Assembly: GCA_036785375.1 (NCBI GenBank)
Contig: JAWMAR010000077.1
Span: 248,001-312,000, forward strand
DNA: 64,000 nt
DNA from: Leucoraja ocellata
Taxonomy: Eukaryota
Direction of reading: 5' to 3'
Shown: in pieces, positions 5,713-53,900 of the stretch
How positions within the stretch are numbered: the stretch's first letter is position 1
How the letters are laid out: every line of letters begins with the position of its first letter
The notes under the pieces: generated by a model
Database searches by the model: none
What the model saw: only the letters and a program-made list of their open reading frames with translations
Told to the model about the DNA's origin: nothing
Translations under genes and position numbers: made by a program

Positions 5713-5969
5713 GAGGAAGAGGTTTGAAGTTGGAAACATGGAAAAATGGCAACTTGCGTGGCTTGCCAAACTACAATGAAAGTACCGTGGGATACAACAC
5801 ATCTTGGATAGAGGAGGCCTTTTATAAAGCCTCCACACCATGGTGTCCATCTGTTACGCGTCTAAGTGGGTTCTTCATTGCTCCGGAGACTGATACTTAC
5901 CGTTTCTATATCACAGGGAGAGGCGTGTTTGAACTTTACTTTAGCTTAACTGGGCCTCCTCAGGACAAG
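5713..5969 (+). CDS. PKHD1L1: PKHD1L1 exon w1 (PA14 domain)
   Basis: ttttag|GA...AAG|gtacgt; GGRGLKLETWKNG...RLSGFFIAPETDTYRFYITGRGVFELYFSLTGPPQDK; phase 1 to 0. Confidence 0.92.
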
Positions 5970-26900: not shown

Positions 26901-29900
26901 GGTTTAAGATCTGTAGGATATCTGACATATTCAGTACCCAGTGCTCTAGTCCACTAGGAGATTTGTCCTGTCACACCCAGCCTGAGAGATATGTGGACTG
27001 AGCCTGATCTCATTTATCAGTTTTCAAAGGGGCAGCAAACAAGATCTATCTGCCTTATTCCCATGTATACCCCAGAGAGATTGACTTCAGGTTAACCTTC
27101 TGTCTCGGTAATGCCTCACTTGTTTCCTTGTCACCCATTTGGATTTGGGATTTGTACCCTCGCTCTGCTCCTTCACCTCCTGCACATTGTGGGTTCAGGT
27201 CCTACTCCTGAAGCCTGTGGTTGGAGTCCAGGCAGGTTGTAATCTAGTCAGTGCTTGCAGGGTGGTCTGACCACATCCTGTTGGAGCCAACACAGTCAGC
27301 ACTGATATCAGCACTGTACTGAAATTGTCCTCAAATCCTGTGCAGTCTTTCATCATACAAGAGGAAATTGATAGGGTTACTTTTACATCTACAATAGACA
27401 ATAGTGGGCCATTCGGCCCTTCGAGCCAGCACCGCCATTCAATGTGATCATGCCTGATCATCCCCAATCAGTACCTCGTTCCTGCCTTCTCCCCATATCC
27501 CCTGACTCCGCTATTTTTAAGAACCCTATCTAGCTCTCTCTTGAAAGCATCCAGAGAACCTGCCTCCACCGCCTTCTGAGGCAGAGAATTCCACAAACTC
27601 ACAACTCTCTGGGTAAAAAAGTTTTCAGGGTTTGTGAAAATTCTCCCCAGGTGCGGCCATGCGCCACCCTGACCTAGCAGAATTATAGTAGGGATCAGAG
27701 GGAATCCTGCGAGGCACTCTGACTCTGCGGGTGGGAAGACGAGTAGATGAGAGAAACCGGTATCAGTTATCAGTGCGGGAATTGTAGGTTGGCCACTGAA
27801 AAACACAAGGGCGTTAAGGGAGGTAGATACAGATTTCCTGGAGGTGGTGAGCGTAGGGCACAGAGTGAGGGGCACTGGCAGAAGGACCGGATGTGAAGAG
27901 AACACAACTAATTCCAGCCCCCATCGGCGATCAGATCTGGTCAGTGCTTCCTGCAGTCAGTTGCTGTGATCGGGTCAGAGTTGCCTGAAATTGAGAGAGG
28001 TCACTGGAAGTCGGTCATTGGGTCACTGGGAGCTAGTCACGGGGTCATTGGGTGTTGATCATTGGGTCACTGAGACCCGGTTATGGGAATCCGTTCACTA
28101 GGGGCAGGTCACTAGTAACTGGGTCACTAGGAACTGTGTCAATGGGATTCAGTCACTGGGGCCACCAGTCACTGGGAGCTGGTCACAGGGAGCGACCATT
28201 GGGAGCTGGAGAGATACTGGACAAGCAAATGGTGGGCATTGGGGGGAGAAGAGGGAGGAGGAGAGGGGATGAGAGATCATGCACTGATCCACACTCCAGG
28301 CGCTCTGCCCCATTTTGATCTTTGTTTTTTTGTTTTGAAGGATTGCCAGTCAGTGCCTCAGACGTGGAAATGCAGTACAATTTACAAAGCATTCCTGAGA
28401 TCAGGAGCGTGTCCGTGCAGAGGGGGGGCAGCTGCTCATATAGCTACTGGAATGTGAAGTGGTTGAAGGCCGGAAAACAGCCCAACCTACAGGTGAGAGG
28501 CTGACCCCAAAAAACCGTATTTGTCCGATCTCTGGACAGACCAGGCTGGGACCAGGTGATAGATCTGGTTCAAGGGACCAAATGGCGTTTGCTCCCCCTA
28601 CCTATATGCCTGTTGTATACATCAACCTCAACACTATTCAATGTTACTGTTGTAATGATCAGACGCATTGGACAAGATGGAGGAATGAGTGGGGGCAGAT
28701 GGCTGGGCTATGATCATCAGGGTCTCATTCTGCCCCTTGCTTATTATCAGTGAGTCCATTGAAATCATCTTGTATATACATACCACCTGCAGGGGGAGGC
28801 AATGACTGCTCAGATGAATCATTTCCTCCAAATTAGCTTGCATGGTGGCCATTCCTTCTTTACCACTAGGTGTAAGTCCTGGAACTCCCTCTCCTCTCTA
28901 CTGTGGGATTACCTTAATCAGAAAGGCTGCATTGGTTCAAGAAGTTGGCTCTCATCTTCGCAAGGGCATTATAACTACATTTAAAAGACATTTGGACAAT
29001 CACATGGAGAAGAAAGATTTAGAGGGACATGGGACAAAAGCAGGCAGGTGGGACTAGTGCAGATGGGGCATCTTGGTCAGCAAGTTTGGTCGAAGAGCCC
29101 GTTTCTGTGCTGTATAACTATATGAGACTATTGTATAGGACCAGAAAAGTGAATGGTAGGATCCTAGAGGGTGCTGGAAAACAGAGATATCTAGGAATAA
29201 AGGTACATAGTTCCCTGAAAATGGCATCAAGGTGGATATGATGATGGAGAAGGCTTTTGACATGTTGACCTTCATCAGTAAGGAATTGAGTAAAGAAGTT
29301 GAAATGTTATTTTACAGTTGTGCAAGACATTGGTGAGGCTGCACATGGAGCATTGCATTTAGCTTTGATCACCCTGCTGTTGGAAAGATGACATTAAGAT
29401 TGAAAGAGTGCGGAAAAGATTTATGTCAATGTTGCCAGTCGCGAAGGCCTGAACTATAAGGAGAGTTTGGATTTTATTCCATGAAACGCTGTAGGCTGAG
29501 GGGTGATCTTATACAGGTGCATAAAATAATGGGACAAATAGATAGGGTGAAAGCACAGTCATTTTACCAGCATAGGGAAATCAAAAACTATAGGGCATAG
29601 GTTTATGATGAGAGGGGAGAGATGTTATAGGTATTTGAGGGGCAGCTTTTTTCACACTGGGGTAGATGGAATGAATTCCCAGAGGAAATAGTTGAGGTAG
29701 GTATAATAAGAACATTTAATAAAACATTTAGACAGGTACATGGATAAGAAAGGTCCAGAGTAACATGGGCCAACTGTAGGTAAATGTTTCAAGCTTAGAT
29801 GTGGCATCTGGTTAGGCATGGGTCAAATGATCTGTTTCTGTGCTGTGTGATGTTATGACTCTATTAAGGATGGGCAATAAAATGCTGCCTTTGCCAAGCT

Positions 29901-32900
29901 GCCTGGATCCTCTTTATAGGAATAAATGGAGCTTCAGCCATGTTTTCCTGGTGAAATTTGTTCTGATCAAATGACCAAAATTAGATTGTGGCATTAAATG
30001 TCTGTTGATCCTGTGTTGAACAGGTTAATGGTTCAAATGTTCAAGGAGTCAATGCGCAAGTTAATGTTTACCAGTGGAAGTCTGGAGGGCTGTTCAGGCA
30101 GCGGCTGATTGGAGACCTGTTCCGTACCCCGCACTCCCTGCCTCAGGTATGTACAGTAGACTCTTCACACCCTCCTGCTGTGAAATGGCTGGTTGAATCC
30201 ACACTCTAACCCCCACAAGCCTGTTCCGCAGTTAGTTAGACCAAGGCTAATCCATACTGGAACCCCATTTATACTACACCTGTATTCTGACTTGATTTGG
30301 AAACCTACCCTAGCCCAATCCAATTTACTCATTCTTATCCCACATTCCCCAGAATCCCAAATCAGCAACAATCTGCTGGTTTTGATTATGACATTTTTAC
30401 TTAAACCCTTAGATCCAGAGAATTCCCAGATGGGGGCTATTCCCAGTGAGAAGATTTCCTTCCTAAACTGTGCAGTTTGACTAATTTCTGGTCCTTCTCC
30501 ACATCCCCTCGTCCTCCCCCCTCCCCCCCACCCCTTCCCCACCACCACTGCACCCCAACCTCACCAGCAATCAAATCCCTTCATCCTTTTGCAAGTTAGG
30601 CCTCCACCCACCTATTCATATATCACATCTGGAGGGATTGTGAACAGATTGTTTTCCTTCCCTTTGCTGCTTCTGTTTCCCAACAAGTGCAGGAAACATG
30701 GGTTATATCACCAATGACTATCCAGTACACCCTGAGAGAGAGAAGAATATGCAGACTAAAAACGATCTTGGGTCGGGGGCAAAGATCATCGCGTTGATGG
30801 GTGTACACAATCTGTTGTCTCAAACATCAACCAGAAATAGTGGAAACACTCATATGTCAGACAGGCATCTGAGGAGGGAGAAACAACATTTATTATTTAA
30901 ATGTGATGAGGCTTCTCGTTACATAGAAAGAAAAAGACTTGAGAGCAACTAGACGATTAAACTCTACAGACGATACCTGAACCACGATATTTCCAGTTTT
31001 CTCCATTCTGTTCCCCAGATTGCCTCATCACAGAGTTTAGCTTTGGTATTACATATCTAATCAATCTGGTCGACAGCAGTTTTAACTCTTGAACAGGCAC
31101 CCCCAGCCCATGCTGTCAGGGTCTGTGTTAGATTAACACGTCAGTAGCAGAGACTTTGCTGGAAAATTCATCAGTTTCAGCTGGCTCTGTTTCTTGGTTC
31201 CCTCAACCTCATCCGGGACTAATCCACCTTCCGCTCTCGATATCAGTCTCATGAAGAATACTTTGCATTTCCTTATGACCTCGATTTGGCCAACACTATT
31301 TGGCCCATTGGATTCCCCAATTAATTTTCCCTATTAACTGTTCTCTTGCCATTCCTATCAATTCCCCCAGATTTTACCACCCACTGGGACACCAGGGGCA
31401 ATTTACATTAGCAATTTAACCTTCCACTGTACCTTTGGGAGGAAACTGGGGAAATGCACAAGTAGAAGGTGCAAACACCATCCAGACAGCACTGGAGGTT
31501 GGAATGGAACCCATGTCACCGGAGCTGCAAGGCAGTGACTCCCAAAAGCCGCGGTGCGGAACTGCGGTTATCGTTGCTGCCTGGCAATGGCAGCCAAGTA
31601 TTACAGCCCCCCCATTAATGCTGGTGCTCGTGGGGTTTACAGTGCAGCACGGTGATGATCAGAACCACTCCGCTGTCATGACATTTCCTACCCAACAGGT
31701 GCATGTTTCCATCAACGGCATTCCCAGCAACTGCTCCGGAAACTGTGGATACATGTGGAATTCTGCGAAAACCCCAGTCATTACAGGCATCAGCCCAAGC
31801 AGAGGTATGTGCTCAAACCAGGGGGGAATGTTTCCGCTCAGGGGGGTACGTTGCACAAGAGGCCAACATTTCTGGGCTTCCTCATTTCAGACGGAGGTGA
31901 GGAGACATTTCTTCTTTCAACAGTTTGTGAATGTTCATTTTCTCTACCGACCGAGCTGTGGAGGCAGAGCCGCTAAATATACTGAATTTAGTGTTTGACA
32001 GAGTACAGTAGAGGGGGATGGGGAGGAGGTATTGAGGCAAGACTGGGATTGAAAGGTGGAGAAGATTCGAAGGACCGGGTGGCCTTAACCTCCTCTGTTT
32101 CCTCTCATGTTCTAACTCCACGGTCACCTCCTTCCACCTGCCTTCAGCAAATGCTGGGCACGTCCCTCAGGCTGCAGCCTGTACCTCCTTTACACGTTAT
32201 GTCCATCCGAGCAGACTGACCATGGCTGAATCCACCATCTTAAATCCAGACCAGCACAAGAGTGCCCTTCCCACAGTGTAACACCCAGTCGTGGCCATAC
32301 TGTACCATCCAACCCATAGCAAGTCACCTTGTCACCGCTCCCTCCATAACTCCCTTGTCACCGCTCCCTCCATAACTCCCTTGTCAATTCTTCCCTTCCC
32401 TCTCGTACCACCCCCTCCCCGGGCACTTTCCCTTGCAACCGCAAGAGATGCAACACTTGTCCCTTTACCTCCCCCCTCGACTCCGTTCAAGGACCCAAGC
32501 AATCGTTCCAGGTGCGACAGAGGTTTACCTGCATCTCTTCCAACCTCATCTATTGCGTCCGCTGCTCTAGATGTCAGCTGATCTATATCGGTGAGACCAA
32601 GCGGAGGTTGGGCGATCGTTTCGCCGAACACCTCCGCTCGGTCCGCAATAACCAAGCTGACCTCCCGGTGGCTCAGCACTTCAACTCCCCCTCCCACTCC
32701 GTCTCCAATCTCTCTGTCCTGGGTCTCCTCCATGGCCACAGCGAGCAGCACCGGAAATTGGAGGAACAGCACCTCATATTCCGTTTGGGGAGTCTGCATC
32801 CTGGGGGCATGAACATCGAATTCTCCCAATTTTGTTAGTCCTTGCTGTCTCCTCCCCTTCCTCAGTCCCCCTGCTGTCTCCTCCCATCCCCCAGCCTTCG

Positions 32901-35900
32901 GGCTCCTCCTCCTTTGTCCTTTCTTGTCCCCGCCCACCCCCGCCCCGATCAGTCTGAAGAAGGGTTTCGGCCCGAAAACGTTGCCTATTTCCTTCGCTCC
33001 ATAGATGCTGCTGCACCCGCTGAGTTTCTCCAGCTTTTTTGTGTACCTTCATAGCAAGTCATGTTGACCATGCCCATTGTGTAATATCCAGGCCAGCACA
33101 GTGTGCCCACATACACTGTGTAATGTCCAGAGCAGCATAGTATGCCCATGTCCACTGCCCTTGCCCAGGACAGTCTATAGTAACCATGCATGCTGTGTAA
33201 TGTCCAGCCCAGAGCACAGTGACCATGCCCACATTGTAACACCTAGCCCAGAGCAGGTTTAGTGACCGTGTCCACTGTGTAATGTACAGACCAGCACAGA
33301 GGACCACATCCACTATGTTAAGTCTAGTCCAGGGTGGAGTAAATGTGTCCTCTATATAACGTCCAACCCAGGGCAGGGTGACTATGATCATACCCACCAT
33401 CTTACATCCAGCCCAGAACAGGGAGACTGTGATCTTCCCCACAGTAGAACGTCAAGCCCAAAGCACAGTGCCAATTCACACCCTGTAATGTCCAGCCCAG
33501 AGCAGGCCGCAGTGACTGTGACCAACGTCTAACTCTACCCTTTGCTCCTGCAGGTTCGGCTCTGTCAGGCACGGTCCTGACCATCTCGGGCTACCGGTTC
33601 GCCAACAGTTCAAAGACAGACACTACCTGGGTTGCGATTGGAGAAGCCAATTGTCCGATCACGAGAGTAACTGGTGAGCTGATGCTGAAAACCAAAGGTG
33701 TCTTTGGGGTGCGTGGGGGCGAATCACTGGACTACTGTCTTGCCACACGTACAGGAGGCAGAGCTGAGTGCTCCTTCCTATGCATCGGGAGCAGCCATTC
33801 GACAGTACAGTCTCCAGCAACTGAGAAAGGAACTGCAGAAGGGTCCCGACCGGAAACATCGTCTGTTCATTTCGTCCACAGATGCTTCCTGTCCCGCTGA
33901 GCTCCTTCAGCACTTAGTGTTTTACTCTCAGTTTGTTCAGAAGCATGGGCGGAGGTCATAGCTCCAACACTGGGTGTCGTTTCTGCTCCCTCATGCTATT
34001 CATATGCTTCACTTAGTTCCAAATATTTCCACAGTTCTCCTTAGAGGATGTGATGGTCCCTGCCATTCCCTGAGGCAGACCATTCCATTCCCAAACACCC
34101 CGTGAGTAACAACATTGCTCCCACTGCCCCTCCTTATCAACTGAGGAGCAAAGAACTGAGAGAGTGGATCACTGGTGTTTTTGTTTCCTTAACAAAGAGC
34201 TTTTATTGCATAATCACTTACAAAATACTGCACAGATCAAAACTGTGACAGGACTTCTGCAGGGATCTGGGACGATTTTTGCTTGTGATATATACACATG
34301 ATTTGGACATAAACGTAGATAGGTTGATCAGTAAATTTGCAGATGACACCAAGATGGCTGGGATCACGGGCTGTGGGGAAGGCTGTCAAAGTATACAGCG
34401 GGATATTGAACGACCACAAAAATGCGCAGAGAGATAGCAGATTTAGTTTAATCCAAGCAAATGCGATGTGCTATACATCAGGAGGTTGTACATAATGGGA
34501 AATTATGCAATCAAAGGCAAGATCCTTAACGAGGGCTTTTAACCGAGCAAAGTATTCCACTGTGACTGAATGAATATAACCAGACATAACATGACTCCAA
34601 AGTGCACTGGAGATCTTAACAGCGAAATAAGGCTTGTTCAAAGAAAACAAAGTCCTGCATTTTCTCGAAATCTGAAATTAAAACAGAAAATGTTGGAAGT
34701 ACTAGTAGATTTCTGGAGAGACCCAGAATTAGTGTTTCAGGTTAATAATTGTTCAACAGAACTGGAATAATTCAGAGATTAATATATTTATAATATGGAC
34801 AAGTTGGTTGAGAACACAAGGGAAGGTCAATGATAGCCTAGAGGGCAGAATGGAGCACAAGATAATAGTGCAAGGGGAAAGGGAGCAGTAGTGGGGACAA
34901 AATAGAGGAGCCCAGAATATTAAAATGAAACATGGTAAGAAACACAGATACATAGAAAATAGGTGCAGGAGTAGGCCATTCAGCCCTTCGAGCCTGCACC
35001 GCCATGTAATATGATCATGGCTGATCATCCAACTCAGTATCCTGTGCCTGCCTTCTCTCCATGCCCCCTGATCCCTTTAGCCACAAGGGCCACATCTAAC
35101 TCCCTCTTAAATATAGCCAATGAACTGGCCTCAACTACCTTCTGTGGCAGAAAATTCCACAGATTCACCACTCTCTGTGTGAAAAATGTTTTCCTCATCT
35201 CGGTCCTAAAAGATTTCCCCCTTATCCTTAAACTGTGACCCCTTGTTCTGGACTTCCCCAACATCTGGAATAATCTTCCTGCATCTAGCCTGTCCAACCC
35301 CTTAAGAATTTTGTAAGTTTCTATAAGATCCCCTCTCAATCTTCTAAATTCTAGCGAGTACAAACCAAGTCTATCCAGTCTTTCTTCATATGAAAGTCCT
35401 GACATCCCAGGAATCAGTCTGGTGAACCTTCTCTGTACTCCCTCTATGGCAAAAATGTCCTTCCTCAGATTAGGAGACCAAAACTGTACGCAATACTCCA
35501 GGTGTGGTCTCACCAAGACCCTGTACAACTGCAGTAGAACCTCCCTGCTCTTATACTCAAATCCTTTTGCTATGAAATTTACAAGCAGCATAATAGTTTT
35601 ATTGGTGATTGATTGATTTTAAAGATGTAATTTTGCTTTCATTTTATCATTAGATACTGAAATTACTTGTCTGGCTGGGCCAGGCTTCACCACAGTGTCC
35701 CCACTCACACTCTACGTCGCTGAGCTTGGCTTTGCAAAACACTCAGGCAACAGGATGTTTACTTTCACCTATGAGCTGGAGGTTACCAGCATTTTTCCTT
35801 CTGAGGGCAGTACGGAAGGTAACGATTACAAAATAGGTGGATAGCCATTTAAATAATCATTAAAGTAATAAACTGCTCCATTCAATAATATTTAAAACTT

Positions 35901-38900
35901 CAGCACAAGCAGTGGACAGATACTTAAAAGAACTAAAGACCATGAATGTCAAGTTTAAAGTTTTAATTGAACTACATTTTGTGTGGATTTCAGCTCTATT
36001 CAATAGATTAATTGAAAGGACAAACAGTCTCTGGCACTAGTGTAAAACTAGACTAAGTGCAGACCCTTTGGGTCTGCTCTCCCAACACAATATTCCACCA
36101 ATCACCCATTCCCCCAATGCAACCCATTCCCCCAATGCAATATTCAACCACACGCATAGCCCCCAAATGCGCAGGAGCAGCTCATTGCCCATAATCCCCC
36201 AGCACTCCCTCTTCTTTTCCATCTCCTCCTCTCCTCTCCAATCCCTCTCTCACCGCTCCCTCCCTCTCCTTTCCCCTACCCTCTGACACTCCCTCTCTCC
36301 GTAACCTCTCCCCTCCCTATCCCCCCACCACTCCCTCCATTCCCCACCTCCCCTACTCCTTACCTCCCCCATCTCCCCCACTACTCCTCCTCACACACCC
36401 CCCATTGCACTCCCCTCCATCTATCCCCATTCCCTACCTCCCCCACTCCCCATCCTCTCCTATTCCCCCTCTTCCACCACTCTCCCTCCTCACCTCCCCC
36501 ACTTTCTCCCATCTCCCTCCCTACCCCCTGCTCTCCCTCAATGCCCCCACTCTCCCTCTTCACCTCCCCAGGATCTTTCCCCTCTCCTCCCCTAATTACT
36601 CCCTCACCTCTACTTTCCCCTACCCTCAGTCACTCCCTCACTCCCTCCGTAACTCCTCTCCCCTCCCTACCCCATCCTATCTTTCTATCCCCCACCTCCC
36701 CTGCTCCTCACTTCCCCCTATCCTCCCCATTATCCCTCCTCACCTCCCCCTCTGCCCCCCTCTCCCTCTATTCCCCACTCCCTACCCCCCTAATCCCCCC
36801 GCCCCCCGTCCTCTCCCTCTATTCCCCCTCCATCCCCACCAAACAAGAGGCAGGAAAAAAATGAAAAAGAGACAGCGATGACTGCTATCTTTGCTAATAA
36901 TACCCAGACCCTACAAAATGCAAATGGTTTTAAAAGTAGACAAAAATGCTGGAGAAACTCAGTGGGTGAGGCAGCATCTGTGGAGCAAAGGGATAGGTGA
37001 CCTTTTGGGTCGAACCCCTTCTTCAGACTGATGTGGGGGTGGCGGTAGTAGGAAGAAGAGGCGGAGACAGTGGGCTGTGGGAGAGCTGGGAATGGGAGGG
37101 GAAGGAGGGAGACAGCAAGGACTACCTGAAATTGGAGAAGTCAATGTTCATACCGCTGGGGTGTAAACTACCCAAGCAACTTATGAGGTGCTGCTCCTCC
37201 AATTTACGGTGGTGCTCACTCTGGCCATGGAGGAGGCCCAGGACAGAAAGGTCGGATTTGGAATGCGAGCGGGAGTTGAAGTTCTGAGCCACCGGGAGAT
37301 CAGGTTAGTTAATGCAAACTAAGTGGAGGTGTTCGGCAAAGCGATCGCCAAGCCTACGCTTAGTCTCACCGATGTAGAGCAGTTGACAGCTAGAACAGTG
37401 AATGCACTAGAAAAGGAGGTGCAGGTGAATCTCTGCCGCACTTGGAAAGACTGCTTGGGTCCTTGGATGGAGTCGAGGGGGGAGGTAAAATGACAGGTGT
37501 AGCATTTCCTGCGGTTGCAAGGGAAAGTACCAGGCAAGGGGGTGGGTTCTTTGGGTGGGAGGGGACAAATTGACCAGGGAGTTATGGAGTGAGCCATCTC
37601 TGCAGAAAGTCGAAAGGGGAGGAGATGGGAAGATGTGGCCAGTGGTGGGATCCTGTTGGAGGTGGCGAATATGTCAAAGGATTATCTGTTGTATGTGACA
37701 GCTGGTAGGGTGGAAGGTGAGGACAAGGGGGACTCTGTCCTTGTTATGAGTGGGGGAGATGGGGAGTGAGAGTGGAGCTACGGGATATAGAGGAGACCCT
37801 GGTCAGAGCCTCATCTATAGTCGAAGAGGGGAACCCCCATTCCCTAAAGAATGAGGACATCTCCGATGCCCTGGTTTGGAACACCTCATCCTGGTTGCAG
37901 ATGCGGCGTATACGGAGGAATTGGGAGCAGGAGATAGAGGGCTTACAGGAAGCAGGGTGGGAGGAAATGTAGTCCAGATAGCCATGGGAGTTAGTGGGTT
38001 TGTAGTAGATGTCGGTCAGTAGTCTGCTACGTGCGATGGAGATAGTGAGGTCTAGAATCGGTAGGGAGATGTCGGAAATGGTCCAGGTGAATTTGCGTTT
38101 TTTAAACAAATGATTTTTAAATATCTCTTTACCCACCATGGCTAAAGATTACAAAGACTTGCACATTACAGTGCCTTTGCTGGTCTCCTGGACTCCAGTG
38201 AATCACTGCAGGCAGCAGTACAATATAAGAAGGGTGTCAGCTTGCCCGATGGCAAGTGGGCCCTTGATGAAGTGGGCCACCTATATCAAGTGGGGCCCCT
38301 GATGAAATGGGCCCCCTTTGTCTCCTAGCAACCAATATTTTTAGACCCAGTCTGCCACTGTATAAGAAGCTCACTGAATGGAGAAAAATAGGATTCTGGT
38401 GCTTTGAAATGGGCAGCCTGTTCTATGAAGTACATCTGGGGTTGGAGCCAGATCTTGCAGACTGGTGCCAGAGAAGACATTTTCTCCCAGAGGCAATGGA
38501 CACCTGAACAGGATTGAGCAGGTGGTGAGTACTGGGGTCGGTGCAGGATGTTAGGGCTGGTGAATTGATATTGGCTGTGGAGATGAAAACAGGTGGGAGA
38601 GGTGGGTAAATGGTAGAATAGCTGGATAGTCAGTGAGAGGCAAGACTGGAAATTGGAGCCCACTTTGCATCACATCCACTGCCCTTACATTCAGAGCACT
38701 GTTTCTGCCCTTCTGTTTCAGGTGGAACCATCCTGACAATATCCGGCTCCAGCTTCCCTCCCGACACGGCAGTGCTGATCGGAGAGAAAAACTGCACACT
38801 CCTCACACAATTCCTGTTCGAGATAACCTGCAGAACTCCACCTGTGAGTGGGTGGTCGTCCTTGTAGTGAGGGGATGCTGCAAGCCAGGGACAGAGGCTG

Positions 38901-41900
38901 GGTGGGGTGAAGGGGTTGTGTGTTGGTGGGTCTACTGTGGGTTGAAGGGAGAGTGGATCAATGGGATGGGAAGGAGAGGTGAGTGGGGTGGAGAGGATGT
39001 GTTGGGGTGGAGAGGGTGGTGCCAGCATGGGTGGGTTGGAGGAGGGGTGTTTAGGAAGTGTGGGTATGGTAGCAGAGGTGGTTTGAGGGGATGGGGTGGA
39101 GAGGGTGTGTTGGGTGGAGGAAGTGTGCATGGGTGGAGGGGTTGAGGGGGTATTGGGGTGGAGTGGGGGTGTTGGGGTGGAGGGGTGAGTGGGTGGTGTG
39201 TGGTTGAAGGGCGCTTGGGTGGAGGTGTGTGTGTGTTGGAATGGAGGGGTGATTGGGGTGGATTGGTGTATCGGGTTCTAGGGCAGTGTGAGGTGTAGAA
39301 GGGATAGAGAGGGTGCATTGAGGTGGAGGGAGTGTGTTGAGATGTGGAGTGGATTGGAAAGGTTGTGGGTTCTGGGGTTGGTGTGTGGGATGGAGGTGGG
39401 CATGTGGAGTGGAGGCAGTATGTGGGGTAGAGGAGTTGGGATGGAGGAAAGGTGGTGGGTGTAGGTGTGAATGGGTAGAAGGGGTGTGTGGGTCAGGGTG
39501 ACTGGGAGGAGTCAATGCGTGTAGTGTAGATGATGTGTGGGTGGTGGGGTTGTGTGTGGAGTGGAGAGGGTGGGATAAAGGAGATGGGGTCGAGGGGATG
39601 GGGTGGAAGAATTTATTGTTTCTGACCTGTGCGAACCTGTCTCTCTTCCCCCTCACCCTCCACCCCCTCTCCCTGTCCTTTTACAGACTAATGAGTGTTA
39701 GGCTAGTGTGTTGTTCATCCAGGGCCAAACAGTCACTTTCACTGGACAGCTTCCCGCCTCCTCCTTCACACTAGTACAGCAAGCTCACAATCCCACTGGG
39801 AGCATAGTTTGGAACTATGAATACGAAACTCCCAGCATTTTTTAATCATCACACCTAACTGAGTGTGAATATCTATTCCACAAGTTTACACTATGTCCTG
39901 CTGCCATACAGTCTGGAATAGCGCAGAGATAGATTTGCTGCATTATGTCACCAAAGACCCGTGTTCAATCCTGACTAGGGGTGCTGTCCATACGGAGTTT
40001 GTTCGTTCTCCCCGCTTGGGTTTTCCCGGGGTAATTCAGTTTCCTCCCACACTACAAAGACGTACAGGCTTGTAGATGATTAGGTTTGGGTAAAGTTGTC
40101 CCTTGAGTGTACGATACTGTTCATATAGGGGGTTTTGGCCAGTGCAGATTTGTAGGGTCGATGGGCCTGTTTACCGCAATGTATATCTAACTAAAGATAA
40201 ACTAAACTACAGTGTGTGTGTAGTTTAAATAAATCTGTATAAAATAATTGGGATTTTAGCAATGAAATTAACCCATTAGTTACGGGGAGCGTGTGACGAT
40301 GTTTAGGCTTTGATGTGCACTTGATGTACTGTGTGGGACCTGAGGGGTTACCTCTGAACATAGACCCCCACCATCACAGAATGATTCTCTGTAACAACCA
40401 TTTCCTGTATCCATCCATCAGCCCTGCCACAAAGTGCCCTAAAATATAATAATGATGTCACGGCATCATAAATGTTGGTTGAAATGGGAGCTGCAAGGGG
40501 AATTAATTCAGTTGGATGTCATAAATTATAGTCTCAAGCCGTTCGCTGGTCCTTAACTTCACCCGAACACGTAATCCATGAAATATATAGCATGCTTGAA
40601 ACAGATATAAATATTTATTAGAGTGAATTGCAGGTTCTGCTAGAGCTCCACTAACCTTGTGTAAGATGCATGACAATAATTACCAGGTAGTCTGTCTGAT
40701 GCAGGCTGTGCTGGGTATGAATTCGATGCCTGCACACATTATGGTTTACTGGGATCACGTTTACTGGTAGGAGCTGCATGTTAATTATAATGCAACATTC
40801 CTCAGAGTTATATTTTATTGGAGCTTACTTAACTTTCCATTTGGTTACATTTCAACTGCTCAGTAAAAGGACTTAGAAACATAGAAACATAGAAATTAGG
40901 TGCAGGAGAAGGCCATTCGGCCCTTCGAGCCTGCACCGCCATTCAATATGATCATGGCTGATCATCCAAGTCAGTATCCCGTACCTGCCTTCTCTCCATA
41001 CCCCCTGATCCCCTTAGCCACAAGGGCCACATCTAACTCCCTCTTAAATATAGCCAATGAACTGGCCTCAACTACCCTCTGTGGCAGAGAGTTCCAGAGA
41101 TTCACCACTCTCTGTGTGAAAAAAGTTCTTCTCATCTCGGTTTTAAAGGATTTCCCCCTTATCCTTAAGCTGTGACCCCTTGTCCTGGACTTCCCTAACA
41201 TCGGGAACAATCTTCCTGCATCTAGCCTGTCCAACCCCTTAAGAATTTTGTAAGTTTCTATAAGATCCCCTCTCAATCTCCTAAATTCTAGAGAGTATAA
41301 ACCAAGTCTATCCAGTCTTTCTTCATAAGACAGTCCTGACATCCCAGGAATCAGTCTGGTGAACAGTCTCTGCACTCCCTCTATGGCAATAATGTCCTTC
41401 CTCAGATTTGGAGACCAAAACTGTACGCAATACTCCAGGTGTGGTCTCACCAAGACCCTGTACAACTGCAGTAGAATCTCCCTGCTCCTATACTCAAATC
41501 CTTTTGCAATGAAAGCTAACATACCATTCGCTTTCTTTACTGCCTGCTGCACCTGCATGCCTACCTTCAATGACTGGTGTACCATGACACCCAGGTCTCG
41601 CTGCATCTCCCCCTTTGTCGAAAGCCTTCTGGAAGTCCAGATACACCACATCCACTGGTTCTCCCCTATCCACGCTACTAGTTACATCCTCGAAAAATTC
41701 TATAAGATTCGTCAGACATGATTTACCTTTTGTAAATCCATGCTGACTTTGTCCAATAATTTCACCACTTTCCAAATGTGCTGCTATCCCATCTTTAATA
41801 ACTGACTCTAGCAGTTTCCCCACTACCAATGTTAGACTAACTGGTCTGTAATTCCCCGTTTTCTCTCTCCCTCCCTTCTTAAAAAGTGGGGTTACGTTTG

Positions 41901-44900
41901 CTACCCGCCAATCTTCAGGAACTACTCCGGAATCTAAAGAGTTTTGAAAGATTATTACTAATGCATCCACTATTTCTGGAGCTACTTCCTTAAGTTCCTT
42001 AACACCACTTCCCGGCTAACCTGGATTTCACTCAATTCCTCCAACTCCTTTGACCCGCGGTCCCCTGCTATTTCCGGCAAATTATTTATGTCTTCCTTAG
42101 TGAAGACGGAACCAAAGTAGTTATTCAATTGGTCCGCCATATCCTTGTTCCCCATGATCAACTCACCTGTTTCTGACAGCAAGGGACCTACATTTGTTTT
42201 AACTAATCTCTTTCTTTTCACATATCTATAAAAACTTTTGCAGTCAGTTTTTATGTTCCCTGCCAGTTTTCTTTCATAATCTATTTTCCCTTTCCTAATT
42301 AAGCTCTTTGTCCTCCTCTGCTGGTCTTTGAATTTCTCCCAGTCCTCCGGTATGCTGCTTTTTCTGGCTAATTTGTACGCGTCATCCTTCGCTTTGATAC
42401 TATCCCTGATTTCCCTTGTTATCCATGGATGTACTACCTTCCCTGATTTATTCTTTTGCCAAACTGGTATGAACAATTTTTGTAGTTGATCCATGCAGCC
42501 TTTAAATGTCTTCCATTGCATATCCACCGTCAACCCTTTTAGAATTAATTGCCAGTCAATCTTGGCCAATTCACGTCTCATACCCTCAAAGTTACCTTTC
42601 TTTAAGTTCAGAACCATTGTTTCTGAATTAACAATGTCACTCTCCATCCTAATGAAGAACTCAACCATATGCTTTAAATTGGATTAGCTATGAATAAGGG
42701 GAGGCTAAATTACATTCCTAATTACATTCCACAGTAGAGCCAGGCTCTGATCAACAGGTGCAGCACACGAATGATCTTAGTGTATTCATGTATGGAAATC
42801 CGATTATAATCAAGCATTTAGCCCATGTTGACCAACCTGGCTCTCACAGCACACATGGTACTACTCCTGACCTTGACTCCAGTTGCATACCTTCTCTCAT
42901 TCCTGACCCTGTCTTACACCTGGCCCCCTATTCTACCCTGATCATAGCTGCTTAGGTTCCCAGTGTTGAACACTCTCATTGTCCCAGCTTTGACTGCACA
43001 CCTAGTACTATTCCAGACCTTGACTCTGGATGCACACTTGGCCTTGCTCCTAGCCCCTCTGCACCGACAATATATCTGGCCCACACATAAAGCCCCATAT
43101 CTGACCCCCTGGACTTAACCTATTACGTTCAAGTTCACAGGTACTTATCTAATGCAGTAATCTTTTATGGGGCACTTCACGGACCAAATCCATTGGCTTC
43201 CTTGTTATCTAACATGCTAGTTACTTTGTCAAATAAGTCATCAATTGGTTGAACACAGTTTCTCATCCATAAAATTATACTCACTCAGCTGTATAAGTAT
43301 TCTGTTACCATTTCCTTCATTTTCCAAACAAACTGTCCTGAAGTCATTTTCACCCCCAATATGTTCAATATTTTGCTGTCTTCCTCTCTGCTGGGACTTT
43401 TCCGAAAGTCCTATTATTATATATTTAAGCAATCAAATTCTATTTAGTATGATCTTGAGAGTACATAATATTTTCTGTGGTATTCATAACACAACAATGA
43501 AAAAAAATCTTTGTTTTGATTACACCTACCAACATGCACACATTATATTACAGTTAATATGTACCGAGGGCAGATTTCTGTCCAATGCTCCCCATTCCCA
43601 ATTACTTTTACATTGAAGTGATTGAAATCCAAGTGAAGTTTATATGGCATCAGAAAAATAAAACCTCCAAAATGGATGATATTCTTCATGTGGTTGGTTG
43701 CAGTCAGTATCAGCACAATTACTGTATTAAACTTTGAATCTTCAGATGTCCTGCTTAAAGCTAAAACTAAAAACAAATAATAACCTCCTCACACATTCCC
43801 CTGCAAGTATCCTAGTCACTCCTTTAAAATATGCTCCTTCTTTAAACAAGCTCTTAAACATCGCATCTGAATCAGTTTCCATCTGATTACACTCCTTGAG
43901 GATGTTCATCTACGTGTTCAGTTAATAAAACATGGAGATTGGGGACATATATTCAACCTGTCAAAGGAATTTTGGGGGGGGGTTAGAAATAGTCAGTGAG
44001 GTAAACAAACATAATAGTTGAGTGGCAAATGACAATAGTTCTACCTTCCCAATATTTAACTGAAGTAAATGATGGGCTATCGGGGCTGTATGTTGTAACA
44101 GACAGCCTAACACCTTGCATGTCATTTTAAAATTACACTTATCCCATCCCCGTGGATATTCCGGATTAATATATTAAAGTTTTGTCAACTATATGTAACT
44201 CTCTTGTAAACATCCAAGAATTGGCCTCCACTGCCTTCTGTTGCAGAGAATTCCACAGATTCACAACTCTCTGGGTGAAGAATGTTTGTCCTCATCTCAG
44301 TCCTAAATGGCCTACCCCTTATTTTTAAACTGTGTGGTCCCTGGTTATGAACTCCCCCAACATCGGGAATATTTTTCCTGCAGTCACAGTAAGTGAAAAT
44401 CTAGCAGTCAAGCAGGATGCTTTCTCCAACCACCCCCATTTGAAGGCCACTATCTTCCACCACCTCTACTCAGTACTTGGTACCTACTTCCAGCAGCCAC
44501 TGGTTGTCCTGCAGGATGCACCGAGCCGCAGCCTGGCCCATGTCGATCACCAGGGTGAATTCGGCACAGTGACTCTCACGGCAGCGGCGCAACGCTTCCG
44601 ACGCCTCCGACGGCCCGGGACTCTTGCACTGAGGCTGCTCCATGGCCGGAGCTGCAGCCAGCCCGGCAAACACTCGCCAGCCCCGGCTCCCCGTCCGCAT
44701 CTACCACCGCCGCTGCTTCTGCTTCCATACCTCCCTCCTCTCCAGCACTCCAACACCCGCGGCCCATGCAGTTGATATTAGTTTTGAAATTCTCGTTGAT
44801 CACAGAATTTCTCATGACAGAGCGTGAGAAATTCTGTGATCAGCGTGAGAGCGTGAGAATTGGGTGAAATCCATGAGTCTCACGCTCAATGCGTGAGAGT

Positions 44901-47900
44901 TGGCAGGTCTGATGTTTTCATCCTGATGTATGATTAGGTGGTAATGCTTTTGATCTGATTTGGTCTGTTTGTCTCTGACTCGGTACTTTATTAAATGTCA
45001 TCAACCATTTCTCACCCCAACTGCCCAACCGATCAAATCATGCTGCAATTTTGGACAACCATCTCCAACTTCTACCATACCACCCACTTTAGTGTCATCT
45101 GCAACCTTGCTAATCATGCCATGAGGCATGTCACTGGTCACAGGCCTCCAGTCCAAAAAGCAATCTTCCACCATCACACTCTGCTTCCTTCCATGAAGCC
45201 AATTTTCTATCCATTCAGCTATCTCTTCTTGGATCTAACCTTCCAGAGCAGCCTATCATGTGGAACCNNNNNNNNNNNNNNNNNNNNNNNNNNNNNNNNN
45301 NNNNNNNNNNNNNNNNNNNNNNNNNNNNNNNNNNNNNNNNNNNNNNNNNNNNNNNNNNNNNNNNNNNNNNNNNNNNNNNNNNNNNNNNNNNNNNNNNNNN
45401 NNNNNNNNNNNNNNNNNNNNNNNTGCCGTCATCGATCTCTTTGGTCACACCATCAAAGCATGATCTGAATATGTGACATAATAGCAAATGCAAGTTGTGC
45501 AGCAACGTCAATGAAAGCCAATTTTGCACGTCTACATTAATCACTGTACTTAAGCACACGTGACAGGCAGGTTTCTACCCCTTTGTTTTTATCTTTCTCT
45601 GCAGCTGTTTCATGAATGCTTCCATTGAATATGTCTTGCGTGTAATAGGAATGAGCCCCACACTGGGCTCGCTGAATGGGGGCACAACAATCACCATCTC
45701 TGGGGCTGGTTTCAGTCCAATTCTAGAGGATAATGATGTCAAACTCGGTAAGTCTATGATAAGCTTTCTCCAGAGGCTTCAGCAGCCTTATACCTTTAAC
45801 TGGTTTTATTCTAAATTCAAGCCATTACTCTGTTCGCACACAGTGAGAGAAACTTAAAATTCGCCTTTAATCTTTCCTGACTAAACATTATCTGATTGAG
45901 GAAGGTTACACAGAAAAGCTGGAGAAACTCAGCGGGTGCAGCAGCATCTATGGAGCGAAGGAAATAGGCAACGTTTCGGGCCGAAACCCTTCTTCAGACT
46001 GATCGGGGGTGGGGGTGGGTGGGGACAAGAAAGGGAAAAGGAGGAGTAGCCAGAAGGCTGGAGGGTGGGAGGAGACAGCAGGGGAGCTGAGGAAGGGGAG
46101 GAGACAGCAAGGACTAACAGAATTGGGAGAATTCGATGTTCATGCCCCGGGGGTGTAGAGTCCCCAAACGGAATATGAGGTGCTGTTCCTCCAATTTCCG
46201 GTGCTGCTCGCTGTGGCCATGGAGGAGACCCAGGACAGAGAGGTCGGAGGCGGAGTGGGAGGGGGAGTTGAAGTGCTGAGCCACCGGGAGGTCAGCTTGG
46301 TTATTGCGGACCGAGCGGAGGTGTTCGGCGAAACGATCGCCCAACCTCCGCTTGGTCTCACCGATATAGATCTGCTGGCATCTAGAGCAGCGGACGCAAT
46401 AGATGAGGTTGGAAGAGATGCAGGTAAACCTCTGTCGCACCTGGAACGACTGCTTGGGTCCTTGAACGGAGTCGAGGGGGGAGGCATCTGATTGAGGAAG
46501 TTCTGTTCCGTTCTGAATCACTGTGATGTCCGATATTCACAGGCTCTGTTCGATGTCCCATCACCTTTGCTTCACACAACGTGCTGGAGTGTGTTCTTGG
46601 TCCAACGGGAAGAACTTTCTTCATCACCAACAATGGCAGCCATCCAAGTAGGTGCAACTTCACGAGGGTTTCTGTCCAGCCATGCTGGAGCACACCCTTT
46701 CTTCTCCATGTCCTAAATGGGAGCATTGTAACTAGAGATCATTCCGTCCCTTCTTGTTCTCTGATTCAGTTTGGTTGTGCTGATGTGAATCTTAACTCAC
46801 CTTAATAACTCTACTGACTTGCCCTGTGAACTCCACTGCTTCTAGTAACATACCTGTTAGCACTGTTCACCTGCCTCATTAACTCCATGACGTTAATTGA
46901 AACATAGAAATATAGAAAATAGGTGCAGGAGTAGGCCATTCGGCCCTTCGAGCCTGCACCGCCATTCAATATGATCATGGCTGATCATCCAATTCAGTAT
47001 CCTGTACCTGCCTTTTCTCCATACCTCCTGATCCCTTTAGCCACAAGGGCCACTTCTAACTCCCTCTTAAATATAGCCAATGAACTGGCCTCAACTATCA
47101 TCTGTGGCAGAGAACTCCACAGATTCACCACTCTCTGTGTGAACATTTGTTTGTCATCTCGGTCCTAAAAGATTTCCGCACTTATACTTAAACTGTAACC
47201 CCTTGTTCTGGACTTCCCCAACATCGGGAACAATCTTCCTGCATCTAGCCTGTTCAACCCCTTAAGAATTGTGTACGTTTCTATAAGATCCCCTCTCAAT
47301 CTTCTAAATTCTAACAAGTACAAGCCGAGTCTATCCAGTCTTTCTTCTACAATAACAAATATACATAAATCTAATAACCTTGTTATAGTGCCCCGCAACC
47401 ACTCACTTCTACTGATTTAATTCAGCTTGTTTGTAGTTCCCTGTCTCTCTTCTATTAATAGTGGAATTCCTGATTTGCGCCCTTTTCTGTGAGAGAAAAT
47501 TTAATTCGAAGGGACCCCTTTATGCTTGACTCCATAACTTCAGCACGTATCAAAATTGGACATGTAATCTGTTTAATGTGATGTCTTCTGAGTTAAGAGA
47601 GTGAGTTCATGCATTGATAGCTACAATATTTTCTCCTTTATTGGAAAATGTCAGAGATTGCAGTTACAATGATGTAAATTCCGATTTATAAATCTCAGTA
47701 TTGCAATTGATGTATTTCTTGAGTTGCTTTGCTGACTATTTTTTTTTTATCGGACAGCACTGGGAGTTGGGTACAGTTGGAATTCGTCGAGCCTTGAGAT
47801 CCTTGTTGGAGACACAGTGCATTGGATATGGGAGTCACCACCTCTCCTCCAAGGCTTGAGGTACCGAGTCTTCAGTGTCTCTAAGCCCAGTGATGTGAAT

Positions 47901-50900
47901 TACAAAGGCAAGGGGTTTATAAGTGGAGATATCGGCACTCCAGCAGGTGAGTACCCCATATTTGCATTTCATTTGACTGGAAGATAGCAAGGTGTAAAAT
48001 CCAACTGATGTTTACAGTGCTAATGTTTATCTTTGATAGTTTTTAGATTTAAAATCATTTCTGCTGGGTGTTATGAATCAGCCAATAATTCCATCTATAA
48101 AGTTTACACAGATAGACCTCAGACACAGGGAAATGTTTTAATCGTGACTTGCTTTTCCCTAGCATTTTTCATAACCTCAGAACATACTGAAACATTTCCA
48201 GCTAATCTGGTCCTATTGAAATCTAGTACAGGTATATTGGAAACAAGGTGGATAATTTGCACATATAGCATTTCGCAAACAGTAATGTGATAATGAACTA
48301 ATGATCAATTTAAGTGATGTTGGATGAAGGCTAAAGGAAGAACTACTCTGGGGGGAAGGATGGGGGAGGGATGGGGGAGGGAGGGGGGAGGGATGGGGGA
48401 GGGAGGGGAGGAGGGAGATGGGGGAGGGGAGGGAGGGGGAAGAGTGTGGAGGGAGGGGAGAGGGGTGGGGGGAGAGAGTGGGGAGGGAGAGTGGGAGGGG
48501 GAGGGGGAGAGAGGGAAGGGGGTGGGGTACAGAGGGAAGGGGGTGGGCGAACAAGTGATGGGGGTGGGAGGAGAAGGGGGGGGAGAGGGGTGAGGAGATG
48601 GAGAGGGGGAGGAGAGGAGAGAGGGGAGGGGAGAGAGGTGTGGGGGAGGGGGGAGATGGGGTACCACCATGAGGTACCACCTCCATTTTAAATTCCATTT
48701 GGAATATTTTGGAGGACCAAGAAACCAAGAACCAAGAACCAAGTACACATCTGCAATTGTCTTCACTAATTTTCTTTTATTTTGCCCATATTCCCATCAA
48801 CTCCTATAATCCTAAGGATCTCTTAAACCTCTCTGCCCTGTTTCCTGCATTACCACAATGATTATTTCCAAAAGTATTTCATTGGCCATAAAGTGCTTGG
48901 AGATATCCTGAGATCAGTGAAGGGGGGTGATGCATAAATGTGAAGATTTCTTTTTTGCTCTGCTTGAGCTCACTGATCAATCTCCTTTCTCCGTATAGGT
49001 TCGTTCTCCTACACCTTCACTTCCCCAGGCATGTTTTTCTACAGCAGTGGTCTCATTGACCAGAAGGGCACGATCTTCCTGCAAGGCGTGGTGCATGTGA
49101 GGGCAATGGAAGAAAGCCCCTTAAAGTTGGGGGTTTTCGTGATTGGCTTTGAAGCAGAATATGCACCTGGTGAGCTCATCCAGTTTCAGTCTGTAACGTT
49201 CAAGCTTCTTGTATTGTTGTCAGATGCCTGTACAGTAAAGGGCCTGTCCCACTAGGCCGTCATTTGCGCCTCATTTATGCGTCATATGTAAAATAGGTCA
49301 ACGTGTCATTACGTGCGACGTCGCGCACAAATCGCGCGTCATCATGCCATCTGGTGCGCGTGAGGCCATTAGAATACCCTGCGGCGCGTGGCGACGAATG
49401 GTTACGCACAGTGACGTCACCATGGATCACCACGTGATACATGTGAGATGTCGGGATGCAGTGTGGGATGCCAATGCGTCAGCGTGTGTACCCAATGCAT
49501 CAGCGTACGTACGCGATACGTCACGCAGGTAGCGCGCGAGGATTTCGTACAGCACGAAATTCTCCACGGCTCTCCCGCGCTACCCACACGCTACCCGTGT
49601 GTCACAACGCGTCAACCTATTTTACATATGATGCGTAAATGAGGCGCAAATGACGGCCAAGTGGGACAGGCCATTAAGGCCACTGCGATTATGGTATTTG
49701 TCTCGCTCCACATTTTTTGCAATTAAACAAGCCACCCATTGCATGAGGCGTCGGTGACACTGATATTGTCCAATGAAAATTGTTTTTGTGGCAAAAATAA
49801 ATCTACTCTGGCTTTGTGTTCTAATTTCAGTAGCATATACATTGTAGCTAGGTAGACCAATGCTCTCCAGTCATGGACATTTCCAGTAATACATTACAGT
49901 TCTTCAGTAACTACGGAAAAGTCTGACAATTATTGAATGGTACCTCGTGCCCCACATATTCTACCATTAAAAGCAGAATGGAATCTCAAAGTCAATAATC
50001 AAGAATATATTGGTTTATTGGTTCATTATTGTGATGTGTACAGTGAATAACTGAAGGGACAGTGACAACAATACTTCATTGTTAGGGTGGTGAATCTGTG
50101 GAATTCTTTGCCACAGAATGTTGTGAAGGCCAGGTCAATAGATATTTATAAAGCAGAGATAGATAGATTCTTGATTTGAACAGGTGTCAGGGGTTATGGG
50201 GAGAAGGCAGAAGAATGGGGTTAGGAGGGAGAGATAAACCAGCCATGATTGAATGGTGGAGAAGACCTAATTCTGCTCCTATCACTTATGAATCTGTGAC
50301 CTGATGATCTGCCAGTCATTTTTTTTTTCTAGATGATCACAAGGAATGCAACGCCTGGAGTGAGATTTGAGCATGCAACCTTATTTGTTTAGTTATCTAC
50401 AGAGTCTCAGCTAACATTGAGCAAATGAGCTGGGTGTCACAGTGACACAGTTGGTCAAGTAGCTACTTCACATACTGACTTCCTGTGTTCCCCACCAGCC
50501 CGGGCAGCACATTCCAGGCAGCCACAACTTTTGCAAACAAATTGCCCTGCCTATCTCCTTTAAACGTTGCTTTTCTTACTTTAAACCTTTGACATTTCCA
50601 TCCTAGGAAAAAAGGTTCTGTCTATTCTATCTATGCCACTCAAAAATGTTATATACTTCTATCAGGTCTTCTCTCAACCTCTGATGTTCTAGAAAAAAAT
50701 GATCCAAGTTGGTCCAACCTCTCTCTGTAGCAACCCCCCCCCCCCCCCTCTAATCCAAGTATAATTCTGATAAACCTCCTCTGTACCCTTTCCAAAGCCT
50801 CCACATCCTTTCTGTAATGGGGTGACCAGAACTGCACACTATGCTACAAATACAGCCTAACCATAGCTGCAACACAAGTTCGTGACTCTTATAGCCAGCT

Positions 50901-53900
50901 CAATGCCCCCACCAAAGAAGCTAAGAATACCATTAGCCTTCTTTGCCACTCTATCTACTTATGTTGCAACTTTCGGGGAACCATGGACCTGGACTACAAC
51001 ATCCTCACATGTCAGTGCTGATAAGGGTCTTGCCATTCAACCATGTACATTCTTTTTCCATTCGACCTCCCAATGTGCTGCAGAACACATTTGGTCAGAT
51101 TAAACTTAATCTACCATTTCTCTGCCCACTTCTGTAGTTGTTCTGTATTCTTTCACAGCCTTCCTCACTCCCACAAACTTGGTGTCATCTGGAAACTTAC
51201 TAACTAACCTGTCTATGTCCAAGTCATTGATATACATCACAGATGACAGAGATCCAGCACAGATCCCTGTAGAACTTGCATGGGGATCCGAGGAGAGATA
51301 GCTGAACGAATAGAAAATTGGCTTCATGGAAGGAATGATGGTGTAAGGTTGCTTCTCGGACTGGAGGCCTGTGACCAGTGGTGTGCCTCAGGGTTCAGCA
51401 CTGGGCCTGTAACTCTTTGTCGTCTATATCAATGATTTAGATGAGAATATACACGGTAAGATGAGCAGGTTTGCAGAGGAGACAAAGATGAGTAGTTTTA
51501 CACGTAGTGAAGATGGTTGTGAAAATTGCTGAGGAATGGTTCATGGAATTTAATGCAGAAATATGTGAGGTGTTGCATTTTAGGAAGTCTAACATGGGCT
51601 AGACCTACACAATGAATGGTAGGGCTCTGGATAATGTTGTAGAGCAGAGAGAGCAAGAGGTGCAGGTGCATAGTTCCCTGAAGGTAGAGTCCCAGCTAGA
51701 TCGGGAGGTCAAAAAGACTTTTGGAGCATTGGCCTTCATCAGCCAGAGTATTGAGCATAGTATGGAGGTCATGCTGCATTTGTATATGATGTTGGTGAGG
51801 CCGCTTTCAAAAAATGTAATATTGTAGATCAAGTAAAATGTGCCTTGGCATCTGTTGATTCTTATATTTTTCATCTCCAAATGTTCGTCAGTTCTTTCCT
51901 TTATCTGGGATTCGTTATTTTTCCTACCATTGATGTTGAGATAACTGGTCTATAATTGTACAGCATTATTATTGTTGTGTATACTAAGATACAATTAAAA
52001 AATAGTTTTGTGTGCCATCTACAAAAGTCATACCATACACAAATACAACACGTCCTACAAGAGGAAAAGACCAGCAAGGAACTTAATGCTATAGGTACAA
52101 AGGTCAAGCATGTAAAAAAAAGTGAAAGGACTGTAACAAGGTAGATTGGAAGATCAGGAATTCGTCCTTAACATATGAGAGGTGCATTTAAGAATCTGAT
52201 AACAGTGAGGAAAAAACTGTGCTTAAATCTGGTGGTATGTGCTTTCAAGCATTTATACCTTCCTCCTGATGGGAGAAGAAAGAATGACTGGGGTGAGAAT
52301 GGTGCTTGATTATGTTAGGTGCATTGCCAAGGCAGCGTGAGATATAGATGCAGTCGAAGGGAGGGAGATTGGTTTGTGCAATGGACGTGGCCATGTCCAG
52401 CATTCTCTGTAATTTCTTGCAGTCATTGGCAGAGTAGTTGCCAAATCAAACGATGATACATTCTGATGAGATGCTCGCTAAGGTGCATCTGTTGAAACAC
52501 ACTCCACGGTTTGTTGTGGAGGCTACTGCTGAATAAATCTCAGGAAGTACATAGATTTCCAGATTTGAGGTCTGGGATGTGGGACAGAGGGAAGGCATTA
52601 TCATCACCTCGGTCACTGCCAATCAGTCACCTCGGTGACTGCCAATCACCCCCCCCCCCCCTCCCCCCTGGACACTTCTTATTATTTATTCAAATTGTTT
52701 GCTATGTCGCTCTTCCAGGGAGATGCTAAATGCATTTTGTTGTCTCTGTACTGTACACTGACAATGACAATTAAAATTGAATCTGAATCTGAATCATGGA
52801 AACACGGGAACTAAAGATGCTGGAAACATGAAAAGACACAAAGTGCTAGAGTAACTAGGCTGGTCAGGCAACACCTGTGGAAGGAATGGGTAGACGACAT
52901 TGGAATTTCAGACTGATTGTAATGAAGAATTGTACAAGTTACGCCCCTGTCCCACTTAGGAAACGTGAACGGAAACCTCTGAAGACTTTGAGCCCCACCC
53001 AAGGTTAGCGTGTGGTTCCCGGAGGTTGCAGGTGGTTGCCGGAGGTTGCAGATAGTGGAAGCAGGTAGGGAGACTGACAAAAACCTCTGGGAACCTCCGG
53101 GAAGCGCACAGAAACCTTGGGTGGGGCGCAAAGTCTCCAGAGGTTTCCGTTCAGGTTTCCTAAGTGGGACAGGGGCATAAGTGGGACAGGGGCATAAGGA
53201 TTCGCCAGACTAAATGCTGATGGAGAAGGCACAACCAGGCCGAGGAATATGGACTACTACACCTGGGTTGCTTTAATGTGTACCCTACTGACTACAGCAT
53301 GTTCTTTATCGTTAGGAAACATGACAACGGTGCAGTCACAGCAGGGGCACAGTGATAACTGTGCAGCAGCCATCCCCACCTGTACCCAGACATTGAACAG
53401 CACTTCATACAACGAAGGCTTCACATTCCTCCTGTCTCTTTGCCACACGCCCACCATCAGCAGCATCACACCTTCCAACGGGACCCTGTTCGACAGACTA
53501 ACCATTGTGGGCACTGGATTCAGCAATGTCACCTGTGCGAATGAGGTAATTCAATATGGTTTTCACCTTTGTTCCTCTTGGCATTGCTGGCCTGGGGAGT
53601 GACTGTGAGCAGCTTCCTGAACTGCCCTGGCCTTCAGGCAAAGTTGCTGCCGTGGTGATGGTCATGGTTCAGACCAAGGGATGGCGCTGTGTTTCATCGT
53701 ACAATCACAACACATTTAATTTAGCCCCTACACATTATGTAACTATCTGTGTTTACCTCTGTAATTATATTGTATTGAAAAAAATACAACACAAGATTTA
53801 AAAAAAATACAGAGCTCTCTATACCCAGTGAGGTAGTCTCCCTCTTTCTATATCTCCCTCTCTTTCTATCTATATCTCTTCCAGTCCAACTCACTACCCC

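Follow-up and report, generated by a model that had tools for sequence, protein, structure and literature searches.

Background

Whether a skate has lost two exons from an otherwise clean PKHD1L1 gene, or only its genome assembly has, is the question raised by a stretch of 64,000 nucleotides of Leucoraja ocellata DNA (the window) in which the reading frame of that gene breaks at one junction. An earlier note, made from the letters of the sequence, read positions 39687-40260 as the remnant of two exons that had been fused by a deletion and had then decayed, and it offered four outcomes for the gene: rescue by new splicing, truncation, recent inactivation, or intact copies hidden in the N gap. 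In mice, PKHD1L1 is reported to form part of the coat of stereocilia and to be required for normal hearing (PMC6707252), and among the reported human deafness alleles is the variant p.Gly1314Val, encoded in exon 32 and placed in IPT6 near the IPT5-6 link (PMC10593026). A search of titles and the starts of abstracts, with subscription journals mostly outside its scope, found no publication on PKHD1L1 in cartilaginous fishes.

For older vertebrate assemblies, the absence of exons is described as one of the commonest kinds of false gene loss, and one that tracks repeat content (PMC9516821). In this study, we compare the window with orthologous proteins and with contigs from four sequencing runs, and we find that the decayed-exon feature is not real and that the break in the frame is likely a hole in the assembly.

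The frame break in PKHD1L1

The identity of the gene given in the earlier note stands. Similarity to named PKHD1L1 proteins is collinear across many exons, which establishes orthology, a large exon of the window matches fibrocystin-L in a protein search, and the orthologue of the skate Rhinoraja longicauda (XP_078254550.1; P0369), the closest named protein among those compared, aligns with the exons in order at 73-94% identity by tblastn, with 87.6% identity before the break and 92.0% after it. The window covers a middle part of the gene, the N-terminal exons, the later G8/PbH1 region and the membrane anchor falling outside it. What the note had said of the frame was likewise found on checking every junction: 27 of the 28 are compatible in phase, the sole clash being 38843/45605, and no stop codon occurs in the 1762 codons (860 + 902) of the window (Table 1). 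Splicing w18 directly to w19 leads to a stop after 7 codons, as does reading through the donor of w18 (also after 7), and the run of IPT/TIG repeats in one frame is incomplete, with 103 residues missing between phase 0 and phase 2. Every acceptor carries AG and every donor GT, save for one GC donor at 57783-57784 after the exon at 57534-57782 (a GC-AG intron), the only non-GT donor among the 29 exons.

Table 1. Features of the PKHD1L1 locus, in window positions
Feature	Position	Strand	Remarks
PKHD1L1 (fibrocystin-L)	5713..63807	+	29 exons in window; 860 codons before the break, 902 after
Exon w17	35654..35818	+	phase 1 to phase 1
Exon w18	38722..38843	+	last before break; ends in phase 0; 146 bits against skate orthologue
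Supposed remnant	39687..39920	+	single-copy intron sequence; homology to missing exons undetectable
SINE-like high-copy repeat	39921..40206	.	six partial copies elsewhere in window; very high depth; common to organism B
Young CR1-type LINE, three pieces	40874..42683	-	absent from organism B; likely left edge of missing segment; RVT_1 E 2.6e-8
Unbroken high-copy repeat run	42684..45267	.	includes older CR1 pieces at 44187-44382 and 44990-45267
N run, 156 N	45268..45423	.	only N run of window; a CR1 reverse-transcriptase motif continues collinearly across it
In-frame extension behind 45566/45567 phase-0 acceptor	45567..45604	+	pyrimidine tract of w19 acceptor
Exon w19	45605..45747	+	first after break; starts in phase 2; 160 bits against skate orthologue
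Penelope-type (GIY-YIG) insertion	45890..46485	-	has a 15-base target duplication; in no contig of the four runs
Exon w20	46543..46647	+	phase 1 to phase 1

The missing residues in related proteins

Between the matches of w18 and w19 fall residues 1283-1385 of the Rhinoraja protein, 103 residues that are encoded nowhere in the window. No intact copy of this coding stretch was found in 38844-45604 or elsewhere in the window (both strands, 86 tiles), the two highest scores over the whole window, 27 and 37 bits, belonging to matches that end on or next to other IPT exons; the true w18 reaches 141. By protein alignment, the exons that flank the break have the same edges in Rhinoraja as in the window, and the missing stretch, which we take to be two exons as in the human gene, was split by homology into 45 + 58 residues. 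About one IPT/TIG unit is absent, as the earlier note had supposed, and it covers the IPT5-IPT6 region.

The stretch is present in all seven elasmobranch proteins compared (Rhinoraja, Hemitrygon, Narcine, Pristiophorus, Heptranchias, Heterodontus and Hypanus) and in two of three chimaera proteins, one older chimaera model being without most of it; the proteins of both groups are annotation models. Its length is 103 residues in Rhinoraja and 109 in the bowfin. Exon-sized holes are common in such models, since four of six chondrichthyan models are without at least 30 internal residues relative to Heptranchias, at differing places. The Rhinoraja model is itself imperfect: it is without 35 residues of w20, which is intact in the window, so that each of the two lacks a stretch that the other has, and it includes stretches that match the window intron at 18546-18652. 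Among the best 120 of 271 and of 151 protein matches there is no bird, turtle, crocodile or squamate name, which is not evidence of loss, and a literature search on PKHD1L1 loss in birds found nothing.

In the seven shark and ray models (P0323, P0334, P0346, P0359, P0366, P0369 and P0387) IPT6 ends 5-6 residues short, the NWG motif being among the residues absent, while the segment is kept in chimaera and bony vertebrates; judged from these alignments, an elasmobranch-wide shortening is likely. Of 283 long proteins examined, 159 matched the pattern used for this segment, which has 19-22 residues in 151 of these and 14 in all seven elasmobranch proteins, the eighth short match being a frog model that matched differently. 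In the gibbon protein P0344 the Gly of this NWG motif stands at position 1314, numbered as in human p.Gly1314Val. The stretch missing from the window resembles the site of the reported human alleles (PMC10593026) in covering IPT5-IPT6; those alleles and the mouse ones (PMC6707252) are tested variants, whereas any altered protein here would be a prediction from DNA.

The sequence at 39687-40260

The elements on which the reading of a fused and decayed remnant was built can be found in the letters: AG at 39685-39686 behind a pyrimidine tract, TAG at 39699-39701, and the peptide pieces that had been named (TNEC*ASV, KLTI, ECEYLFHKFT and others), short motifs that resemble those sought and follow one another in about the right order. 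Their homology to the missing exons did not hold up. Against base-level profiles of the skate or of six elasmobranchs, 39600-40400 scores 15.0-17.3 bits, a level reached by 28-71 of 100 shuffles, while the true w18 and w19 score 116-160 bits in the same test. When each of the three motif pieces is scored by itself, 42, 48 and 107 of 150 same-size tiles from the sequence nearby do as well or better. The frameshift-aware alignment to orthologous exons proposed in the earlier note as a check likewise leaves the stretch at shuffle level: with a profile of 115 bony-vertebrate proteins, 39600-40400 scores 32 and 36, with 13 and 9 of 150 shuffles as high, and with the SINE excised 11 and 4 of 150 are as high, the second of these matches falling within the pyrimidine tract that precedes 39687; w17, w18 and w19 score 121-185 with that profile. 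Single bony-fish proteins give no signal against the supposed remnant, and paralogous IPT exons, at 27-37 bits, score above it.

These tests would have detected a considerably decayed exon. When w18 and w19 were given an extra 10-40% of simulated decay together with indels, their medians remained at 53-112 bits with the base-level profile, and 30-base fragments with 20% decay passed the 95th percentile of the null in 85% of the 40 trials run, a share that rose to 97-100% for longer fragments. The acceptor at 39686, which had been called strong, is only average, its score of 6.7 lying within the range of real acceptors and being equalled by 66 of 3522 intronic AGs, and the sequence behind it does not match the start of the missing exon. 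Nor can the NWGF-like sequence after the SINE be orthologous, because that motif is absent from all seven elasmobranch proteins. Pfam returned no family for the 47-codon frame at 39702, and Rfam gave no match to the SINE-like repeat, which the earlier note had named a V-SINE, or to any other part of 38844-45604.

From the shuffle-level scores, the absent NWGF and the average acceptor, 39687-40260 is intron plus a SINE-like repeat. A difference by insertion or deletion between the window and a related organism near 39729-39744 (below) could be fitted to a decaying remnant; decay past recognition is incompatible with the untouched exons on either side, and in our judgement there is next to no chance that the stretch is what is left of both exons.

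Sequencing runs and the repeats behind the break

Contigs of four DNA runs, out of seven listed of which none is recorded as RNA, were compared over 35600-46890, X1 and X2 being two samples of organism A and X3 and X4 one sample of organism B (three samples from two studies, all behaving as whole-genome DNA). Contigs of X1 and X2 match 38332-40008 and 40046-40897 with no difference at all, which shows that the bases of the window are correct there, that w18 and the supposed remnant lie on one continuous stretch, and that the junction of the CR1 at 40874 is genuine. Poor base calling as a cause of the break is thereby ruled out, in agreement with the earlier note, which had argued from long open reading frames in the adjacent CR1. 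These frames are indeed open; the copy itself is split into three, with breaks near 41616 and 41995. It is young, with 5 private changes in 605 sites (0.83%), and is 97% identical to another copy in the window.

Organism B, about 2-6% diverged per piece, has the SINE and is without the CR1 at 40874. It matches 39729-40002 with 13 substitutions and no gap, and a contig of 1496 bases at single-copy depth (X3 record 18, X4 record 25) aligns to 40096-40874 and then continues for 692 further bases. Among the pieces listed, which include some shorter than 692 bases, no second piece places these bases on 35600-46890; contigs that merely are without an insertion, that of the Penelope copy, are listed with both pieces (records 7, 14, 21 and 28). 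Since organism B runs on for 692 unbroken bases past 40874, the window is, on the pieces listed, without single-copy sequence directly behind the CR1. At 39729-39744 two contigs of organism B, with a 16-base overlap between their aligned parts, carry 158 and 60 bases that do not align; either B gained an insertion with a target duplication here, or A underwent a small deletion.

To the right of this junction every depth bin from 40878 to 45401 is high-copy repeat, at thousands of times single-copy depth, and among the contigs listed none bridges 40897-45424 in any of the four runs; contig joints and loose ends of the runs in the interval are swamped by repeats. The stretch at 42684-44186 is a high-copy repeat of about 1.5 kb that has no other copy in the window and carries a weak internal duplication of 51 bases. 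Pfam gave no family for the open reading frame at 44329. No word of more than 7 bases is shared by the flanks of any of the nine CR1 copies examined in the window for target duplication, and outside their tails the copies at 6235-6256 and 34917-34938 have nearly the same 21 bases, which suggests a shared 3' extension or a preferred target of young CR1. The Penelope-type insertion, 57 bases upstream of w20, has a GIY-YIG match (E 6e-4) that fails the Pfam cut-off, and it is likely a recent polymorphic insertion.

The N run sits in the broken intron, which is one of 28 introns and accounts for 12.8% of intron length. Its flanks are collinear within CR1 and predict about 46 bases between the two halves, so the gap proper is likely small; 156 bases cannot in any case hold 309 coding bases. 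That the exons lie inside the N run in the narrow sense is disfavoured on both counts, though the run may also stand for withheld sequence, and dropout then requires an unseen mis-join to the left of it, at an unmarked site, more likely between 40897 and about 44886, among the repeats. Of the four outcomes first offered, that of intact copies missing from the assembly is the best supported, with its place moved from the N run to the stretch that more likely begins with the CR1 at 40874.

Deletion, rescue or assembly dropout

We consider it probable that the two exons were dropped in assembly and that the animal has an intact PKHD1L1. A mis-join or an under-sized gap in the 4.5-kb all-repeat stretch that starts at the young CR1 would drop both exons; the assembler, rather than an event in the animal, would have made the join by jumping between near-identical copies of CR1 or of another repeat, and the 692 bases of organism B would lead to the missing exons. 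What is shown directly is the extra sequence in the relative B; under this reading the two exons would be present in organism A as well. Features by which false exon losses are recognised are found here, in that the missing exons coincide with repeats and a gap and that close relatives keep the sequence (the Rhinoraja model and organism B). As in the false gene losses described for vertebrate assemblies (PMC9516821), whole exons are gone from a repeat-rich, gapped stretch in a gene that is otherwise clean; in the cases described there better assemblies proved the losses false, whereas here there is only the extra sequence in organism B.

Against dropout, the N run appears to be small, which places the mis-join at a site that has no marked gap, and both samples of organism A carry the CR1 junction at 40874, so that a true deletion with or after the insertion fits the same data. 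Retrotransposons are associated with genomic deletions that are either coupled to insertion or due to recombination between copies. The window resembles such cases in that the sequence lacking here would follow immediately on a young LINE copy which a relative does not carry, and an assembly jump between repeat copies would look the same except in long reads. By either route, target-site deletion at the insertion of the CR1 or recombination between two CR1 copies, a very recent event could have removed both exons from the assembled haplotype or from organism A and left a null or truncated allele. The youth and broken state of the CR1 copy are in keeping with this, as are the differences between the window and the four runs in exon w17. 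Among the 40 of 832 differences listed, all six in that exon change the amino acid, three of them occurring in organism A, a pattern that for this one exon hints at weak constraint. The residue at 35788 is common to the four runs and does not occur in the window, Rhinoraja, Narcine or Heptranchias.

The remainder of the gene limits how old any such loss could be. Unitary pseudogenes are expected to carry several independent lesions, and the 58 splice sites and 5.3 kb of coding bases examined hold no second one: over the 29 exons there are no stops and no frameshifts, the splice dinucleotides are intact, and all 37 invariant Cys are kept. Changes derived in the window and in Rhinoraja number 47:32 upstream of the break (p 0.115), an excess in the direction expected of relaxed constraint, and 31:26 downstream (p 0.60), so that no rise in rate is seen behind the break. 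In 300 trials of simulated neutral decay, assuming 0.07 indels per substitution, both halves stayed clean in 33%, 4% and 0.3% at 0.2%, 0.5% and 1% divergence respectively. The absence of decay thus bounds any real loss to about 0.5% of neutral divergence, and the 0.83% of private changes in the CR1 lie at or beyond that bound. Truncation or recent inactivation, as the earlier note had envisaged, is in this way confined to a very recent event, and we regard a real deletion tied to the CR1 as unlikely, though deserving serious consideration.

Clean flanking exons could coexist with a real deletion if the frame had been rescued, either by splicing w18 to the weak acceptor at 45566/45567 or by skipping from w17 to w20, which share phase 1. 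The 13 codons that the first route would add, leaving the protein short of one IPT unit, resemble the lost last strand in length and appearance and match the end of the missing exon of the electric ray Narcine in an ungapped protein alignment; they are also the pyrimidine tract of the next acceptor and yield F, L, S and P by composition. The acceptor scores 1.0, a value as good in 666 of 3522 intronic AGs and as low in only 2 of the 29 real acceptors, and it would compete with the w19 acceptor, 38 bases further on, which scores 15.9. Skipping from w17 to w20 would, judging from the alignment, cut across repeat boundaries. The splice rescue through 45566/45567 that had been proposed thus finds no support, and we hold in-frame rescue by either route to be improbable, while all other explanations together have hardly any weight.

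Implications

One version of a real loss would matter for the protein itself. It is very improbable that the young CR1 deleted one IPT repeat's worth of sequence in one skate lineage and that the pyrimidine tract was recruited as the last strand, a scenario drawn from the sequence of the locus; if true, the hair-cell coat protein of that lineage would be one repeat shorter and would have a chimeric IPT5/6 domain. With the two exons probably dropped in assembly, the locus serves only as a warning, and PKHD1L1 should not be scored as lost or remodelled in skates on account of it.
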